From contig OZ320322.1 in NCBI GenBank assembly GCA_976226885.1, positions 42,222,001-42,286,000 on the forward strand: 64,000 nt of DNA, written 5' to 3'. The stretch is from Iphione sp. A-MEVVRFRX5 (Eukaryota). The translations under genes and the position numbers were made by a program. The number at the start of each line of letters is the position of its first letter. Position 1 is the stretch's first letter. Of the stretch, positions 11,745 to 32,042 are shown one piece after another. Below the pieces are notes generated by a model that saw only the letters and a program-made list of their open reading frames with translations, was not told where the DNA came from and ran no database searches.

Positions 11745-14700
11745 GCACCACCAGCAAGAACAACCACAACTTCTCCTCCAGCATCAGTTGCAGTGTCGTC
11801 CGATGTAGCATCTGTCCGATATGAGTCTATTCCGGGGCCAAGTCACCGACCAGTGAGTTGAATGAGCTGTTCGACTGAAATAATGATAGAAAATGTATCA
11901 ATTTCCATACGCGTGAGAGTGTGTGCATGTATGTGCGTGTGTGTGTGTGTTTGGATGCAGTCAGTTATCCTATTTTGTTCTGTCTCTCTCTCTCTCTATG
12001 TGAAAAATAAACAGCCGGAAGAAGGATTGGTGAGAGTACTTCCAAGAGAAGAAATGCAGAGTCTATATTCCCTGTCATCATCTCCCTCATCTGACGAGAT
12101 AGAAGAAGTAAGTAAAAAACCTGTGTATTTGTGTTTCCTTACCTGTTTACTGCGAGCCAGCATACTGCAATCTGTTTTTTGTCATATACTCGTCGTATGA
12201 AGTTCCTATAAGAAAACAAAGTACCATGAAGATAACTTACTTCGATTTTTTTTTTAAATACAGGTTGTAAAACAAAGGCAATGTGAGAAGTGCTTGAAGA
12301 AATTTAAGCGTCAAGGCAATGCCAGGCGACACAAAGAAAGCTGTCAGCAATACAAGTGCTCTAAGTGTACCCGGTCTTTTAAGAAAGCTTCACTTATGCG
12401 AAGGCATCTTCTAAGTCACTCACACAGATTAGAATGGCGATGTAGAAAATGTGGCGATTCGTTCGCGAATAAGCGTGAGTTGTATCTACATCGAGGAATC
12501 CAACACGGGGGCGGAGGGAATGGAACCACACTCCATGAAGAGGGTATACCCCTCCAGGTCGAACCGTGGAAGGATGGTGAGCGAGGAAAGAAGGACAAAA
12601 GTAAAAAAAGAAAAAGGGACAAGACCCCAAGCGAGAACAATCAGCATCCACCCTGGTGCAACAGGGAAGGGGAGACCATAGAGCCAGAACTGGAAAGGGT
12701 ATATAGAGCCAATCAGCGCCACATCCTGGCCCACCATACAGATAGAGAAATCACCACCGATTACAATTTCCCCACCAACGATCTGTCACGTGGTCCCCAG
12801 GAACTTCACCAATTCTTGGAGACCATTTTCGAAAGAGAAGACCATACCTTCAAGGTGAATATGTCGTTCGGTATGATATTGCGTAATGTTCAGACGGGTG
12901 AATATCGTTATTTCATCCCCTATAGTAACAGTATGGTATTTAACGAACCCATAGTGGTTTCCCGGGCAAGTGACCTGTCTGAGGTAATGGACACCATAAG
13001 GGCAGTGGACCCGGAGAATTACTTCACCCGGAACCGACCAGACACTAAGTGGCAGGTAGCCATGATAACCAATGTCGTATTTTTCATTACGCGCACCACG
13101 TATCTGATGGGTCGAGGTTTCCTTCCCGAGTTTGTGCGAAATAAACGATGTATCACTTCCTTAGATGATCATAACGATGCTCTTTGCGCCTTTAGGTGTC
13201 TCGCAGTACACCATCAAGAAAACGACGTAGAAGGAGCCGTGAAAGAGTACTATTTGTCATGGCGTCAGTTCCAATCAAGTCTAGGAAACCGCACACTACC
13301 TCCCGACCCCAGTAAATCTAGGGGTGTGGACCTGCGCGACTTGACTCTCTTTGAGGAATGTTTCCAAGTCGGCATCTATGTATACGAATTGAAGATGAAT
13401 GGAAGCATATCCGTCATTAGGAAACCTTTCTCTCGTTTTCCTGACATTATGCACCTTAACCTTCATGCAGGTCACCTCTCTTATGTCAATGACTTCGAGA
13501 CATACGCCAAGAAGTTTCAGTGCCGTCTCTGTCGACGATGTTTCGGCAAGAGACATCACTTTGCGAGGCACTCCAAAGTATGTCCCCTGAGAACACGTTA
13601 TGTGTACCGAGGGGGATACTACAACAGTCCTTCCACCATATTCGATGATCTGGAAGGACTGGGAATAGTCGTTTCCCCTGAGGAACGGACTTATGAAGAT
13701 TTCGCCGTATTTGACTGCGAGGCTATTCTCAGAAGACTCGATGGAGAAAGAGACACCCCTAGTGTGACGTGGATTCATCGACATGAGACCATCTCAGTCT
13801 CCGTGTGCAGCAACGTACCTGGTTTCACAAATCCTCAGTGTTTCCTACACGAAGACATGAAAACGCTAGTTAATCAGATGATCGAATACCTGGAATCTAT
13901 TCAGGAAGAAGCTCTAGAGAGAGCAAAACGAAAATGGGGCGACGTGGTCAGTCAACTGGAGGAACTACTGCAGGAGACAAACGACAAAATAACGAGACAG
14001 TTGGGAGATGCACCCGTTCAAGATCATGTCGTCGAAGACGACGAACTGGTCGATTTCGTCTTGCATCGTGAGGACGAAGAGAATGTCGACGATGATGCGG
14101 ATGCTGCCGGCAACGATGATGCTGCCAATGCTGCTGGTGGTGCTAACGATGATGATGATGCCGATGATGAAGATGACAGAGGTGGTCACCGCCAGGAGGG
14201 GGATCGGACCCACCCTGCCCTGAAGTATAAGAAGACGGTAGAAAAAATACAAGGTAGGTTCTATACCTACATGAGTTCGCTACCCGTCTTGGGTTTCAAT
14301 TCTGCCCGCTACGACCTGAACTTACTGAAGGGGGAACTCTTGAGAACCCTCCAGGTGGACGAACCAGGTTCATTTGTGATCAAGCGAGAGAACACGTACA
14401 TCTCCATTTCCACTGTACGCTTCAAGTTCCTGGACATATGTCAGTATCTGTCGCCTGGTGTGTCCTATGCTCGCTTTCTTAAGGCGTACGGTGCTTCTCA
14501 AGAAAAGAGTTTCTTCTGCTACGAGTACCTTGACTGCCCCGAGAAGTTGAAGGAGACAGAGCTTCCTCCACACGAGGCATTCTACTCTTGCTTGAAAGGA
14601 AGTAACATTTCCATCGCTGATTACGAAAGCCTCCAAGAAGTATGGAGGAAAGAGAACATGCAGTGTCTGGCAGACCTTCTGATTTATTATAACAACCTAG

Positions 14701-17240
14701 ACGTGCTCCCGTTCGTCGAGGCAGTGGAAAAGTTGCAGGCTTTCTATTTCCAGCGGGGTTTCGACTTGTTCAAAATATCCGTATCTGCTCCGGGCATGGC
14801 TCGACGAATGCTGTTCCAGTCTGCCTCCTCTAAGGGAACCGTGTTTCCCTTGTTCAATGGTTCTCAGGAAGATATATACAAGACCTTCAAGAGTAATCTG
14901 GTGGGTGGTCCAGCCATCGTCTTCACCAGATATCACGAGAAGGACAAGACTCTCATTCGAGATGGATTGTCACCCTGCAAGTCCATTCTGGGACTCGATG
15001 CCAACAGTCTATATCTCTCGGCCATAGCCAAAGAGATGCCGATGGGCAACTTCACACGACGAAGGCAGGAGTATGGCTTTGTGGTCGAGAAATTCTCTAC
15101 GTACCAGACCATGTTCGTGTGGTTGGAATGGGAGTCGCGAAGAAGGAAGAAAACCATTCATCACGCCAAGAACCGAGACGGAGGTGAGTTACGCATCGGA
15201 CCGTATCAGGTCGACGGATTCATGTCTCCCTCTACTGCTGGGAAAGGAAACAACCCAAGCCGTGGAACGGTATTCGAATTCAACGGTTGCTTCTTTCACG
15301 GTCATCGTTGCATGAAGGGGAAAATGAACGAACAGGACAGAAGAAAGCGACAGAAGAGAACGGAACAGAAGAAAACTTTTCTGGAGTGGATGGGCTATAG
15401 GGTAGTCACGATGACAGAGTGTTCTTTCAGAAAAATCATGGACGGCAAAGACGAATTGCAGAGCATAGCCAGAGACATTCTTCTCCCCCCGTTCTCCAGA
15501 GTTCGATATGGTAAGATAAGTGGGCAGGAAATCCTTAGAGCTGTAGAAAAAGGTGACCTTTTCGGAGCAGTCGAAGTGGACATCGAAGTTCCAGAAGCCT
15601 GGAGTGAGGGAAAAGAGAAGAGTCTCCCGCCATGGAGTTATTTCGAAGAGATGTCCCCTCTCTTTGGCAAAGCTAGCGTTCGTACCTGTGATATCGGTTC
15701 ACACATGCAAAGACACGTGGCTCAGTTCGAGTTGTCGGAACGTCCTCGTCAGCTGTTGGTAGGGGCAATGAGGGCTAAGAAAACCGTCATCGCCACCCCA
15801 CTCCTGAAATGGTACCTGGAGCACGGATTGAGGGTGACTAACGTCTACCAGGTGATCGAATTCAACTCGTCCACCTGTTTCAGTGACTTTGAACAAGAAA
15901 TCACGGCAGCCCGTAGACGAGGCGATGCCAACCCCGACATGGCAGTCATAGCAGACACCATGAAACTCCTGGGTAATTCTGCATATGGTGGCATCATCAT
16001 GCAGAAGGAGAAGCAGACTGCCATCAATTATTTCTCCGACAAGTGCGAGGCATCGTTAGCTGTTAACTCTCCTTCTTTCAGGAAGATGGTGGAGTACAAA
16101 GGATTCTACGAAATCCAAGCAGCCAAGCCCCACATCGTCCTAGACCTCCCGATCTATTTGGGTTTCTTCATCCTTCAATATGCCAAATTAACGATGTTGG
16201 GTTTCTATTACGATTGCATCGATAAACTGATCGACAGGGACCATTTCGAATACGTTACCATGGACACGGACAGTGCCTATCTAGCTCTGTCGTCCTCCAA
16301 TCTACCCGAAGCCATGTCCGAGGAGAAGAGAAAACTCTATCTGGACGAAGTGTTAGGCAATTGCAGTGATTCTGCCAAGCCCGTCTGGTTCATGCGCGAG
16401 TGCTGTCCACAGCACCAGACGTACGACAGACGGGTACCAGGCATCATGAAAGAGGAGGCTCGAGGAGAAGGGATCGTTGCCCTCAACAGCAAAACCTACA
16501 TTCTGGAGACGTCTACAGACAACTACAAGCTGAGCTGTAAAGGCATTTCCAAATCTCGTCTCGTCCAACCCATGGAAATCTACCGCTCCGTTCTCAGCAC
16601 CCAAAAGTCACGCATTGGAGTCAATATGGGTATGCGCGCCGTCGACGACACCGTCTTCACCTACAAGCAGGAAAGGACGGGATTCTCGTATTTCTATGCC
16701 AAACGAGTGGTTCACGATGATGGCATACACACCACCCCCCTCTCCATCACCCTGTGTCCGTGGAGTGACGACGTCGACAATTACGTATTCGGTGTCGGGA
16801 CAAGAGACGTACTCGGTCCGCATTACGTTTGCGATATGGGGCTAGGGTTCATCTCCTCAGAGCACATGTTCCTTTACGAATTGGCTAGATTTCACAATGC
16901 GGAAGAAGAAGCCAGAGCCATTCATCTCACTCGAGATCACACAGAAATGAGAGCCTATGCCGACTTTGTGGATCTGAGTGAAAGGTGGAGACATATCGGA
17001 AGAGAGGACACGATGAGACAAGTTCTGACACTGAAATTGAACAGGGTGCCGGAAGCGAAGAGAGAACTGGATCATGATCGACGTATAGTCTTTGCCGACT
17101 CGGATCGTTTCTGGGGGGTGGGAATGACGCCGGCTCTTGCTAAGATATCTTCACCCTCGGAATTCAGGGGAGAGAATCGTCTAGGGCAGCTGTGGGAGGA
17201 GCTTCGTGACAGAGAACGCGCGAGAGAGATGGAGTTATGA
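11174..17240 (+). CDS. polB: Protein-primed family B DNA polymerase polyprotein, spliced (about 1849 aa): disordered N-terminus, 3 zinc fingers, terminal-protein-like region, exonuclease, polymerase with VSR-like insert, C-terminal NADAR-like domain
   Basis: Predicted exons 11174-11332, 11429-11557, 11661-11852, 12015-12107 and 12264-17240, all phase 0 and in frame. Motifs FDCE (ExoI), GFNSARYD (ExoII), YNNLD (ExoIII), DANSLY (A), KLLGNSAYG (B), DTDS (C). Polymerase call is very secure; the exon model is sequence-only. Confidence 0.92.
15102..15428 (+). other. VSR/PD-(D/E)XK-like nuclease insertion within PolB
   Basis: ...IGPYQVDG...VFEFNGCFFHGH...LEWMGYRVVTMTECSF between motifs A and B matches the VSR-type pattern (DG, EFxGCxWHG/FHG, GYxVxxxWEC). 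Confidence 0.75.
16780..17220 (+). other. NADAR (YbiA/DUF1768)-like domain fused to the PolB C-terminus
   Basis: After the usual PolB end (DDGIHTTPL): FISSEHMF, W..IGREDTMRQVLTLKLNRVPEAKREL, DRFWGVG and GENRLGQLWEELR, in the order and spacing of NADAR motifs (SEH; W...M...L..K...P.L; DxxWGxG; GxNxLG..L.E.R). Confidence 0.82.
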
Positions 17241-17280
17241 TTGACGCGTGTGGGAAACGGATGTCATTGTTGCCTGAACC

Positions 17281-17916
17281 ATGACCGAGTTAAGTCTACC
17301 TTCGTTCTGCTTTCATTCGCCCAGTACCATATTCATATCTGGAGCCACTTCTACGGGGAAAACTCACTTCGTGAAGCGAATGATCAGAAACAGGAAGCAG
17401 ATGTTTCAGAAGCCACCAGATAAAACGGTGTACTGTTACGGAGCTTGGCAGGACGACTTCACTTCTCTAGAAAACGAAGAAGGAGTGGAATTCAGAGACG
17501 GGATAGACCTCGAAGACCTGACATCTTCCAATGGGGGAGAGACCCTACTCATCTTGGATGACTTGATGGACGAGGTAGTCCAAGACACTCGAGTTCAAAG
17601 GCTTTTCACCAGAGGCTCACATCACCAGGGAATCACCGTCGTATACATGAATCAGAATGCATTCTGTCAGGGAAAGTGTGCCCGCACGATTGCACTCAAC
17701 TCACAATACCTCGTGCTCTTTCGTAATCCGAGGGACGTAAGACAGATAAAACGTTTAGGTGACCAGATGGGCATGCCTGGAGTGACTGAGGCATATCGAG
17801 ATGCCACCAGTGAGCCCTACGGCTACCTGATCGTCGACCTCCATCCACACAACCACACCGACGTGAAGCTGAAGAGTCATGTCTTCCCCGGCGAGGACTT
17901 GATATGGTATAGCTAA
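17281..17916 (+). CDS. A32/FtsK-like genome-packaging ATPase (211 aa)
   Basis: Walker A GATSTGKT, Walker B LLILDD, RGSHH and RNPRD motifs typical of Polinton ATPases. Confidence 0.95.
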   Translation: MTELSLPSFCFHSPSTIFISGATSTGKTHFVKRMIRNRKQMFQKPPDKTVYCYGAWQDDFTSLENEEGVEFRDGIDLEDLTSSNGGETLLILDDLMDEVVQDTRVQRLFTRGSHHQGITVVYMNQNAFCQGKCARTIALNSQYLVLFRNPRDVRQIKRLGDQMGMPGVTEAYRDATSEPYGYLIVDLHPHNHTDVKLKSHVFPGEDLIWYS

Positions 17917-17979
17917 TAGGTGCACCACGACAGACGTCGGGCAGTGGCGACGAAGGCAACACCTCACTAGGTCATCGAC

Positions 17980-18306
17980 ATGTCCTCACCTCGTCTGCGC
18001 GACAACGGTGACTTCGTTCGACTCTTGATACACTCTCCATCGCGTAAGCAAGTGGAAGCTCTCCTGTTCACTGCCAGTCCGGCACAAGTCGAAAGTCTAA
18101 GTGAGATTGCACTGAACCTGATCACTTTACCTCTGCCAGAGTCACTAAAGAAAGAAGTGAATAAGAACAGATCAGTTCTCAAGCGCCTGGCAGATCGCTC
18201 TCTATCCACTAGAGGCAAGACAGGTACGGTGAAACGTAGTCGCAAACGACTGGCTCGCCTCTTTCTTCATCTACCTGGGGAACTGCAGCAGATGACATGG
18301 GAATGA
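17980..18306 (+). CDS. Small conserved Polinton protein (PW-like, tentative), 108 aa
   Basis: Helical basic ORF with ESLSEIALNL, resembling the small protein found next to the ATPase in animal Mavericks; recognised from memory only. Confidence 0.65.
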   Translation: MSSPRLRDNGDFVRLLIHSPSRKQVEALLFTASPAQVESLSEIALNLITLPLPESLKKEVNKNRSVLKRLADRSLSTRGKTGTVKRSRKRLARLFLHLPGELQQMTWE

Positions 18307-18496
18307 GGAAGACAGTGTGCATACCTTTCGAGCGGTATAACGCTTTCTTTTCCAAGAAGCCTCATGCATCCAGCAGCAAAACATCTCCTCCTATAGATAG
18401 AGAAGCTCATCCTCGGGTCGAAAGCGATCAATGTCTTGCACGTGAAATAAATGGTTCTGGAGAGGATTGTTTTGCAGCGGCGGAGGTGGTGGCGGA

Positions 18497-18585
<89 letters not shown>

Positions 18586-18824
18586 AACAAAGCGGGAAGG
18601 GTCTGTCACCGCGAGCGCGGGCGGGGGCGGAGACGCCGCGTTCCACGACAGCATCAGGCAAACGATCACGTTCACCCATTACGCATGTGCAGACAGAGGC
18701 CATCTCCACCTCCAGTACTCTCCCTCCACCACCGGGAAAACCGGTCAGCGGAGTAAAGAGACGGTTGTTACCTAAGAGTTCTCAGCCGGAAAGGACATGG
18801 ACCCAGGCATGGATCAATATTTGA
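18297..18824 (+). CDS. Proline-rich protein with a 29-Pro run (175 aa; start may be the ATG at 18303)
   Basis: Overlaps the upstream stop (ATGA) and the integrase start; ends in a W-rich tail (TWTQAWINI). Tight packing argues it is the coding frame. Confidence 0.65.
18504..18584. repeat. Uninterrupted (CCG)27 trinucleotide repeat
   Basis: Direct reading of the sequence. Confidence 0.95.
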
Positions 18825-19954
18825 GCAGCATCTACTTCAACCCGGCCGAACCAGAGTCCTTTGGAAGTGCCGTGAACCTTCACCGGAGAAGTAAAGCAGA
18901 CGGGAAGGAATACAAATTAAACGACATCAAGCGATGGCTGCATTCACAGGAGAACTACACTCTTTTCTACCCGTCGCGCAGAGTGGGTGGAGTCAAGAGG
19001 CCGCGAGTAATCGTTCCAGACAAACTGTACCAGCTCGATGCCGACACCGTTAACATGTCTCAATGGCGAGGTGAGAACGATTCCTTTGCCTATTTCCTCG
19101 TCTGTGTGGACATCTTCACTCGCTATGCATGGAGTCGACCCTTGAAAACGCTGACCGGGAGAGAAGTCACCTCTGCTCTCAGGAGTATCCTGCGAGAGGT
19201 CGAAGCTGAACCCATACTGGAAGGAACCGTGTCCTACACGTCTTCCCCGTCTCCCAGCGTTCGTGTATTGAGGACGGACGGAGGAAAAGAATTCAACAAC
19301 TCCTTCGCTCGTTCATTTCTCAAACAAAAGGGAATCAAACATGTCGTGACTAGGAACGAAGTCAAAGCCAACTATGCGGAACGGTTGATCAAGTCACTGA
19401 AGAGTCGTCTGGTTAAAGACATGTATCACCGTCAGAGTCATCGTTGGAAAGACAGCTTGGAAACCGTGGTTAAGGCTTACAACAACTCTCTTCACTCGTC
19501 CATAAAGATGTCACCCAGACAGGCCCTCATATCTGCAGAGAGTCCTGTCCTGTGGAGATACCAATACCTAAGAAGGCGAGAGAAAGCCAGCAATTTTAAA
19601 TTCGCAGTCGGAGATGTCGTGAGGATAGCCAGAATGAAGCATGCGTTCTCTAGGGCCTACGACGAGGCCTGGACCCACGAATTATTTATCATCACCGACC
19701 GTTCTGCTGCTCAAGGTATTCCTCAGTACTCTATAAAATCATGGGACAACGAAGAGATCGAGGGACGTTTCTACAACGAAGAACTTGTCAAAGTCCACGT
19801 GGATCAACAGACGCGTTATAAGGTGGAGAAGATCATACGTAAGAAGAGGGTCAATGGAGTAAACGGTTACGTCGTGCGATGGTTAGGTTGGCCTCCCAAG
19901 TACGACTCCTGGGTCAGCGGTTCCGATCTGAAAAACTTGGGTGGAAGAGTATAA
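18797..19954 (+). CDS. int: Retroviral-like (c-integrase) DDE integrase with C-terminal chromodomain (385 aa)
   Basis: CVDIFTRY, RTDGGKEF and AERLIKSLK supply D, D and E. C-terminal YKVEKIIRKKR...YVVRWLGWPPKYDSWV is a chromodomain. Confidence 0.96.
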   Translation: MDPGMDQYLSSIYFNPAEPESFGSAVNLHRRSKADGKEYKLNDIKRWLHSQENYTLFYPSRRVGGVKRPRVIVPDKLYQLDADTVNMSQWRGENDSFAYFLVCVDIFTRYAWSRPLKTLTGREVTSALRSILREVEAEPILEGTVSYTSSPSPSVRVLRTDGGKEFNNSFARSFLKQKGIKHVVTRNEVKANYAERLIKSLKSRLVKDMYHRQSHRWKDSLETVVKAYNNSLHSSIKMSPRQALISAESPVLWRYQYLRRREKASNFKFAVGDVVRIARMKHAFSRAYDEAWTHELFIITDRSAAQGIPQYSIKSWDNEEIEGRFYNEELVKVHVDQQTRYKVEKIIRKKRVNGVNGYVVRWLGWPPKYDSWVSGSDLKNLGGRV

Positions 19955-19992
19955 AAGCTAACCGTCACGTAGGCAGCCTCACCAGTTCACCC

Positions 19993-20385
19993 ATGTTTTA
20001 CATCCAGGCAAGACCGACGACGAATAGCAGTCTCCATCCTTACAACTCTGCGTGGGACTTCACAGTGGAATTATCTCGCCCGTTACAACTACTAGGCGAC
20101 TGGGAGTGTGCATTAGTCAACTTATACACCGAGAGTGTGGGTGGATCAGACGACGTGGTGATATGCTCCGACCTGGTGGACAGTAATAACATCTCGGACA
20201 AATTAGAACCCAGCGTCAGGATACAGAGAGGACAGGGTGGAGAATTTACGCAACTGTGGTACATTCCCTTGGTGCGTCGGCATCTGGAACGTTTTCGCGT
20301 GTATGGGCGGATACTGGGTTCGACCACTCGTAAACCTAGCATCTCCCGTGCTCTATTTCACATCAGACCAGTGACTTCGAAGTAA
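19993..20385 (+). CDS. Minor capsid (penton-like, single jelly roll) protein, about 130 aa
   Basis: FYIQ...NSS..P.N...DFTVELSRPLQLLGDWECAL and ICSDLV...P.VR...F...YIPL match Polinton penton termini. The ATG at 19993 follows TATAAAA at about 19951; the ORF-track start at 19879 overlaps int. Confidence 0.8.
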   Translation: MFYIQARPTTNSSLHPYNSAWDFTVELSRPLQLLGDWECALVNLYTESVGGSDDVVICSDLVDSNNISDKLEPSVRIQRGQGGEFTQLWYIPLVRRHLERFRVYGRILGSTTRKPSISRALFHIRPVTSK

Positions 20386-20399
20386 GTCGAAACCAGACA

Positions 20400-20726
20400 A
20401 TGGACAACGAGACGACTTGGTTTGTCCCCCACGTGCCGAAAGCGGAGGCATTCGGTAGAGTGGAGAGGAAGCGTAACCATTACATCGGAAGAGGACCGAT
20501 GACATCTGCAACGCCTATCACGTTGGTTACCCCTACCGAGCAGGCAGTGGAACGGGCAAAAGCCACTCTCGCCAAAAATCCTCCCAAAAGTCGCAAGCGA
20601 AGGAGTTTCTCGCCCAGTCGACGGAAGGGAGTCAAGAAGAAAAGACGCTCCAAGTCTGCTCCTGCAAAGAAGACGAAGAAGAAGAAGAAGAAGAACACGA
20701 AGAGTAATTATGGCGTTCGTGGTTAA
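20400..20726 (+). CDS. Basic, Lys/Arg-rich putative virion core (DNA-condensing) protein, 108 aa
   Basis: LVTPTEQAVERAKA motif followed by a highly basic tail; lies between penton and major capsid genes. Confidence 0.75.
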   Translation: MDNETTWFVPHVPKAEAFGRVERKRNHYIGRGPMTSATPITLVTPTEQAVERAKATLAKNPPKSRKRRSFSPSRRKGVKKKRRSKSAPAKKTKKKKKKNTKSNYGVRG

Positions 20727-31803: not shown

Positions 31804-31965
31804 CGCTCTTATCTCTTATCATTTGAAAAGTCAAGTAGCGCACTGTTCTTATCATGACGTGATCTCTCTTATCTATAAGTAGGGACAACCCTTATCAGGT
31901 CGTAATCTATCTCCTTATCTATGTAGGTCAAGTTGAAAATGGAAACTCAAGTGGTTCAGGGAAAC

Positions 31966-32036
31966 TCAAGTGGTTTGCACCCAAATAACCTTTTTGCACT
32001 AAAGGGGGTCTAGGGCAGTTACCTTCATACACTACT
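31966..32036 (-). repeat. Right terminal inverted repeat
   Basis: Reverse complement of 8136-8206 (67/71 identical). Confidence 0.95.
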
Positions 32037-32042
32037 ACTACG
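32037..32042. repeat. Right 6-bp target-site duplication ACTACG
   Basis: Identical to 8130-8135. Confidence 0.93.

Follow-up and report, generated by a model that had tools for sequence, protein, structure and literature searches.

The pPolB polymerase gene of a Polinton in Iphione sp. was found to end in a NADAR-fold domain (hereafter the tail) that lacks two residues required in active NADARs, the catalytic Glu and an essential Lys. The gene lies in the 64,000-nucleotide stretch of contig OZ320322.1 analysed here (hereafter the window). We consider the tail to be a docked, non-enzymatic accessory domain, i.e. a retained pseudo-enzyme, with a probability of roughly 0.6. The initial annotation had described a NADAR-fold domain fused to a Polinton polymerase, and this was borne out by the open frame, the Pfam match and the predicted fold. 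The architecture is apparently undescribed and is distributed over a clade of Polinton polymerases.

The pPolB-NADAR gene

Features of the window are listed in Table 1. Because the open frame spans 1660 codons, the true start of the gene may lie upstream of its first ATG. The Exo and Pol motifs of the polymerase were intact (VFDCEA at 13707, LDANSLY at 14994, KLLGNSAYG at 15963, and MDTDS at 16260). No match to PF03175 was obtained on the window's protein in the Pfam search; its identity as a pPolB is indicated by 531 relatives found with the polymerase part, many of which carry PF03175. The insert with the motifs QVDG and FEFNGCFFHGH is one that we take to be a VSR nuclease, a reading that also fits how JGI has named the relatives P0056 and P0067.

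The typical pPolB end, DGIHTTPL, was located at 16719-16742. The initial annotation had the frame continuing for about 160 aa beyond it, and the frame indeed runs stop-free for about 165 residues into the tail. All the tail motifs it had quoted were present, with the Glu of SEH (E1489) and the Asp of DRFWG (D1570) 81 residues apart, and the position of the usual VEAS motif does read VFAD.

Table 1. Features of the Polinton and of the pPolB-NADAR gene in the window.
Feature	Position	Strand	Remarks
Polinton/Maverick element, whole	8136..32036	.	23,901 bp (~23.9 kb), intact; termini AGTAGT...ACTACT
Target-site duplication ACTACG	left 8130..8135, right 32037-32042	.	6 bp
Terminal inverted repeat	left 8136..8210, right arm 31963-32036		~75 bp; self-BLAST 93% over 75 bp
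pPolB-NADAR fusion gene	12396..17240	+	One open frame, 1614 aa from first ATG
VSR-like nuclease insert	15207..15305	+	Between Pol A and Pol B; core motifs QVDG and FEFNGCFFHGH
Polymerase-core end and linker	16719..16766	+	DGIHTTPL-SITLCPW; common to tail-less relatives
NADAR/YbiA-fold domain	16767..17213	+	aa ~1458-1606; likely catalytically inactive
E1489 (E43 of 8BAU, ribose contact)	16860..16862	+	Kept; 43/50 own-genome tails
L1496 (at essential K50)	16881..16883	+	Replaced; Lys/Arg in 0/50 own-genome tails, 35/35 canonical NADARs
D1523 (at pyrophosphate-binding R79)	16962..16964	+	Charge reversed; Asp/Glu in 37/50 tails, Arg/Lys in 35/35 canonical NADARs
F1566 (at catalytic E125)	17091..17093	+	Replaced; Phe/Tyr in 50/50 own-genome tails, Glu in 35/35 canonical NADARs
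D1570-x-x-W1573 (D130 and W133)	17103..17114	+	Kept; 49/50 and 50/50 own-genome tails
Packaging ATPase, A32-like	17281..17916	+	Pox_A32 E 0.019, under cut-off; Walker A in sequence
rve integrase with chromodomain	18797..19954	+	PF00665 E 1.4e-8, PF00385 E 1.9e-8 (clear match)
Probable major capsid protein	20710..22050	+	446 aa; size and position only, no Pfam match
Adenain-like cysteine protease	22031..22528	+	Peptidase_C5 E 0.0027, under cut-off

Predicted fold and packing of the tail

Both checks proposed for the identity of the domain, a Pfam profile match and a comparison with YbiA/NADAR structures, came out in its favour. Pfam NADAR (PF08719) matched aa 1480-1606 with an E-value of 5e-12 and 46.8 bits against a curated cut-off of 35.1. 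An AlphaFold2 model of the tail alone (pLDDT 88.8, pTM 0.83) contained the five core helices and small sheets of the YbiA fold, and in Foldseek it matched the Phytophthora nicotianae NADAR (8BAU; probability 1.00, TM 0.76) and Escherichia coli YbiA (2B3W; probability 1.00, TM 0.71), with all other PDB rows at a probability of 0.06 or lower. Phmmer with the tail alone against the PDB gave nothing relevant, whereas a profile built from 24 tails of the same genome found 8BAU at an E-value of 8.5e-8.

In the prediction, the tail also lies packed against the polymerase, as suggested by the pTM and the linker confidence. A fused model of aa 820-1608 reached a pLDDT of 92.2 and a pTM of 0.89, and the linker had a pLDDT of 86-87 in this model versus 42-67 in the tail-alone model. 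We infer a fixed position because the tail makes up a fifth of the modelled chain, and its free placement would be expected to lower the pTM.

Active-site residues

Residues of the window's tail were mapped to 8BAU by sequence alignment via the host's canonical NADAR, and columns were counted over 50 distinct own-genome tails, 35 canonical NADARs, and 27 LINE NADARs. As described in PMC11543638, 8BAU holds the distal ribose with E43 and E125 and the pyrophosphate with K50, R79, W89, R93, W133, and a water-bridged D130, and K50 touches both the adenine and the pyrophosphate. Hydrolysis requires the equivalents of E125 and K50, and changing E43 to Ala had a minor effect in vitro. The acid differs among NADAR subfamilies (Glu, Asp, or His), and in DarT1-linked NADARs an Asp two residues off the aligned Glu serves as the acid (PMC11543638). 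In SCO5665, E167D and E167Q each abolish all activity, according to PMC12945103.

None of the 50 own-genome tails carried Glu, Asp, or His at the last-strand position occupied by F1566 in the window, or the phosphate-binding Lys at the position of L1496, which is Leu or Met throughout. The equivalents of E43, W89, D130, and W133 (E1489, W1531, D1570, and W1573) were kept, all four together in 43 of the 50 tails including the window's, and apparently correspond to the residues that the YbiA N-glycosidase requires, as mapped from the homologues covered in PMC9303266. The K75 position was basic (R or K) in 41 tails, and the G78 position was mostly Ala. One own-genome clade (L081-L084) also lacks E43 and W89. 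Two residues after F1566, the Asp of VFAD (D1568) recurred in 23 of the 50 tails, with S, N, C, T, or V in the others. Among the LINE NADARs, E125 was present in 22 of 27 and K50 in all 27, and E43, K50, and E125 were kept together in 22.

The initial annotation had treated the Asp of DxxWG as catalytic; its 8BAU counterpart, D130, makes a water-mediated phosphate contact (PMC11543638). Nor is an active DNA de-ADP-ribosylase supported for the window's tail, in which E125, K50, and R79 have become F1566, L1496, and D1523. The caveat attached to that proposal, that a change from VEAS to VFAD might alter activity or specificity, became the decisive point because both the Glu and the Lys needed for hydrolysis are replaced. 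As far as these substitutions indicate, the proposed role of the window's copy as an eraser at the replication fork is likely wrong.

Copies in the same genome and selection

The tail was matched in at least 150 places in the genome (150 of 1811 candidates were scored), at identities from 100% to 41%; by manual count, about 100 of these scored matches sit in frames of at least 1500 codons. Identical tails were found in 11 places including the window, on several contigs and in frames of 1660-1668 codons. The initial annotation had named a stop or an assembly error between PolB and the domain as something that would refute the fusion; the frame has no stop there, and the same fusion recurred in independent assemblies. 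Because identical tails occur in independent full-length copies, an artefact of assembly or frame that joins two genes can be dismissed for all practical purposes.

Ten of ten more distant own-genome polymerases, chosen by the polymerase part alone, bore the tail, one of them cut short. The tail profile matched none of the 20 loci in two other own-genome Polinton polymerase groups (L114-L133, two with broken frames), which end at TLPYG(Y/F/N) or TLAYGH.

The tail is under purifying selection. Ten of 990 pairs, about five of them independent, were usable for dN/dS (polymerase dS 0.1-1.5), and in these the tail had values of 0.06-0.18 with a median of 0.12, compared with 0.067 for the polymerase; the tail evolved at about twice the polymerase rate. 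In the clade without E43 and W89, the tail dN/dS was 0.11-0.12. Each of the three deep own-genome clades had full-length tails, even at identities as low as about 40%. Across 25 diverse tails, the invariant residues were mainly those of the scaffold (L and P of the linker, F36, K98, L109, and GxNxxG). The net charge was -5 in the window's family (median -2); the tail is thus not basic, so DNA binding is not favoured.

Relatives outside the genome and history of the fusion

Among the best 120 outside relatives of the polymerase part, PF08719 was precomputed in 16, the tail profile matched 19, and 14 more had an eroded tail as judged by eye. The survey of Polinton PolB C-termini suggested by the initial annotation thus recovered the NADAR tail repeatedly, and about 85 of the 120 (manual count) were tail-less. 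Relatives with names were molluscan (Pinctada, Tegillarca, Haliotis, Mytilus, Argopecten, and Solemya). A HMMER search with the tail profile over representatives yielded, among the best 150, 33 new proteins with a pPolB C-end before the domain; together with the 19 from the polymerase-part search, and with P0061 left out, these gave 52 outside fusions.

K50 was kept in 28 of the 52 outside fusions, and an acid or His occupied the E125 position in four. The full YbiA-type site (E43, K50, K75, W89, E125, D130, and W133) was kept in two, P0148 and P0150, and one other, P0177, combined E43 and K50 with a phage-type His at the E125 position. The sequences of P0148 and P0150 are fragmentary, lying on contigs of 1275 and 1751 bases, respectively, and their linker, PL-x-L-x-L-x-PW, is that of the other fusions. 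From these residues, it is probable that some pPolB-NADAR fusions are, or once were, active erasers. The eraser idea is likely to fail for the window's copy, with its Glu and Lys replaced, but is still viable for the family, in which P0148 and P0150 retain the full site and are predicted to be active.

Word-index searches with the tail only returned no relatives; this was misleading, since the polymerase-part and HMMER searches gave many. Viral contigs held no polymerase relative and one distant giant-virus protein, a dual-specificity phosphatase fused to a NADAR without K50 and E125 (L101:5290-6225). Six loci were found in metagenome contigs, and none of the five inspected had a polymerase fusion.

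A NADAR tree (92 rows, 158 columns, 30 of the 102 pPolB tails, midpoint root, bootstrap not fully settled) placed the 30 pPolB tails and one long-branch giant-virus row together, separated from the other rows by a 98/96 branch. Within this set, the first to diverge were P0150 and P0148, and the tails without E125 formed a 99/91 subset. The nearest free NADARs included zinc-knuckle proteins of the ORF1 type. Capture from the LINEs of the window's own genome was unsupported, as these were not the nearest rows. A giant-virus origin of the tail, prompted by the Phe at the E125 position of L101, was set aside: L101 forms a single long branch (1.6) that is nested among the tails, and its position is unsure.

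In the polymerase tree (FastTree; root weak, on long, gappy branches), tail-bearing forms made up a grade, and most tail-less forms fell in one nested group (96). P0148 grouped with tail-less forms in a short polymerase tree of 183 columns (SH-aLRT 95), and from this placement its intact NADAR may have been captured anew at a later stage and need not reflect the ancestral state. Polinton polymerases may have captured NADAR repeatedly.

Other C-terminal arrangements were also observed. A related pPolB, P0021, ends in DUF4326 rather than NADAR (E 1.9e-19); DUF4326 has been linked with ADP-ribose processing in PMC9503650. P0061, which was nested among tail-less forms, is a pPolB that carries degenerate NADAR-like repeats, two in tandem. 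In a clade with shortened tails of about 140 aa (P0081, P0082, P0086, P0088, P0089, P0091, P0092, P0098, P0101, P0105, and P0113-P0115), all that remains of the fold is the end with W-x-x-G and G-x-N-x-L-G, as recognised by eye below the profile threshold.

Other NADAR and PARP genes in the genome

PF08719 gave 4416 first-look candidates in the genome, of which 150 were scored. LINEs with an ORF1-terminal NADAR were abundant (L052-L080, L272-L275), and in all four inspected, the ORF1-NADAR was followed by a separate ORF, presumably SGNH-esterase-like, and by an APE-RT ORF. An ORF1-NADAR fusion is known from oyster Tx1 elements, as noted in PMC12477816. The canonical host NADAR is a single-exon gene with the full catalytic set (L051:1360-2346, minus strand), closest to Bacteroidota and Paenibacillus proteins at identities of up to 61%.

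An exon-wise search with the Scabin-like, DarT, and Pertussis_S1 profiles (PF22596, PF14487, and PF02917) gave no genome match, and its controls were silent as well. It was aimed at the cognate transferase that a DarT1-NADAR type of counter-defence would require, and it lent no support to the host defence by DNA ADP-ribosylation that the initial annotation had implied. PARP domains were matched 28 times in the genome. At C4:4188061-4328866 and C15:58698981-58700078 of this genome (G000), long frames of up to 2281 codons are clustered and carry tandem, intron-less PARP catalytic domains.

Possible roles of the tail

The accessory-domain reading is favoured because E125 and K50 are missing from every own-genome tail, yet the tail dN/dS is about 0.12; the equal constraint on the clade that has also lost E43 and W89 likewise counts for a non-enzymatic role. 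Counting against it are the joint retention of E43, W89, D130, and W133 in most own-genome tails and the frequency of tail-less relatives. Those four residues, together with the basic K75 position and the intact predicted fold, would also suit a non-catalytic reader whose pocket still recognises ADP-ribose, or a base or protein that bears it, and which steers the polymerase or shields the mark. We judge such a reader unlikely, since K50, which contacts both adenine and pyrophosphate in 8BAU (PMC11543638), is always replaced by Leu or Met, the R79 position is mostly acidic, the G78 position is mostly Ala, and constraint is no weaker in the clade that lacks E43 and W89. In a weaker form of the initial annotation's proposal, the same pocket residues could instead belong to an N-glycosidase that is active but has a rearranged chemistry or acts on another substrate, and in which D1568 could replace the lost acid. 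Such a shift would resemble the displaced Asp of DarT1-linked NADARs and the variation of the acid among subfamilies (PMC11543638), and in P0148, P0150, and P0177, E43 and K50 are retained together with an acid or a His. The odds of this are likewise low: fewer than half of the tails (23/50) have the displaced Asp, conservative changes of the acid killed SCO5665 (PMC12945103), and the essential Lys is missing as well. That the tail is a neutral relic in slow decay is very improbable; many relatives have an eroded tail or none and the tail changes faster than the polymerase, but dN/dS was far below 1 in every usable pair, and full-length tails persist in all three deep clades.

For a docked accessory domain, the history may have run as follows. 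A Polinton lineage would have acquired a NADAR that was still active, its probable source being the ORF1-NADAR pool of retrotransposons, and the catalytic Glu would have been replaced first, in most descendants; the Lys would have followed in the lineage of the window's genome, and further residues after that. The fold would have been retained because it was already part of the polymerase, in which the tail would most likely brace or extend the thumb region and offer a surface for binding DNA or a partner. In other lineages, the tail would have been eroded to about 140 aa or dropped, or DUF4326 would have come to occupy the same end.

A more far-reaching scenario, tentative and on balance doubtful, is that marine-invertebrate Polinton polymerases took an ADP-ribose eraser from retrotransposons to the site of replication, with P0148, P0150, and perhaps P0177 still active and the disarmed form reading or shielding the mark. 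If true, this scenario, taken together with thousands of candidate LINE ORF1-NADAR loci, would suggest that animals possess a so far unrecognised defence in which the nucleic acid of mobile elements is ADP-ribosylated.

Comparison with known systems

The initial annotation knew of no described pPolB-NADAR fusion, and none was found in the literature searched; an earlier mention may exist in Repbase, in supplementary files, or in de Souza and Aravind (2012). The main text of the viral NAD-ADPr survey (PMC9503650) contains no occurrence of Polinton or adintovirus, and the main text of the pPolB2 preprint (bioRxiv 10.1101/2023.08.22.554363) none of NADAR.

The tail shares with YbiA-family NADARs (8BAU, 2B3W, and SCO5665) the fold, PF08719, the E43/W89/D130/W133 equivalents, and the GxNxLG helix, and differs from them in having Phe for Glu, Leu for Lys, and Asp for Arg79, and in its fusion to a polymerase. 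As in the Tx1 LINE ORF1 of Crassostrea gigas and the Gypsy Pol of Ectocarpus, the NADAR is part of a larger replication or packaging protein of a mobile element (PMC12477816); those are retroelements with the catalytic set mostly kept (22/27 in the LINEs sampled here), whereas the window's fusion involves a DNA virus-like polymerase. With the mollusc-type pPolB2 that has a VSR insert, as described in the above preprint, it has in common a Polinton pPolB with a VSR-like insert; the motif and the molluscan hosts of the named relatives agree, and it may belong to that group. Adenovirid and bidnavirid pPolBs keep an inactivated vOTU domain for which a structural role has been proposed (PMC11161782); this too is a captured enzyme domain kept after catalysis was lost, although it is N-terminal, has a protease fold, and is of unrelated origin. 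Further, T4 gp30.3 and the NADARs of other phage counter-defence systems, NCLDV, and nidoviruses are likewise borne by viruses in a setting of host conflict, but in PMC9503650 they are free-standing or parts of RNA-virus polyproteins, unlike the polymerase-fused tail.

The fusion adds a domain architecture over a whole clade of Polinton polymerases. Within the family, the forms are graded: some keep a full active site, others are likely pseudo-enzymes, and in still others the tail is eroded, absent, or exchanged for a different domain linked to ADP-ribose. Intact relatives of the P0148/P0150 type are candidates for testing the eraser idea. The presence of NADAR in two unrelated classes of mobile elements in one genome raises the question of which ADP-ribosylated substrate animal elements meet.

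The surrounding Polinton

Polintons/Mavericks are characterised by terminal inverted repeats with AG...CT ends and a 6-bp target-site duplication. Both were found in 8136-32036, and a pPolB and an rve integrase are encoded in the same element. The boundaries agreed with four other copies, about 99% identical, which aligned from 8135/8136 to 32036-32040 and each had a 6-bp target-site duplication of its own. A run of N at 31662-31803 lies inside the right end. In the packaging and capsid set, the ATPase and protease matches were under the cut-off, and the capsid genes were placed by position alone.

Accessory ORFs were detected at 9726-10634 (plus strand), 29739-30485 (minus), and 28321-29100 (minus). 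Two further accessory ORFs, at 22769-23764 (minus) and 24434-25606 (plus), had no Pfam match above the cut-off; each has a signal-like start, a Ser/Thr-rich stalk, and a transmembrane-like segment, and resembles a cell-surface protein. The ORF at 9726-10634 gave a SOCS-box match (E 3.6e-4, under the cut-off), which suggests that its product may recruit host ubiquitin ligases.
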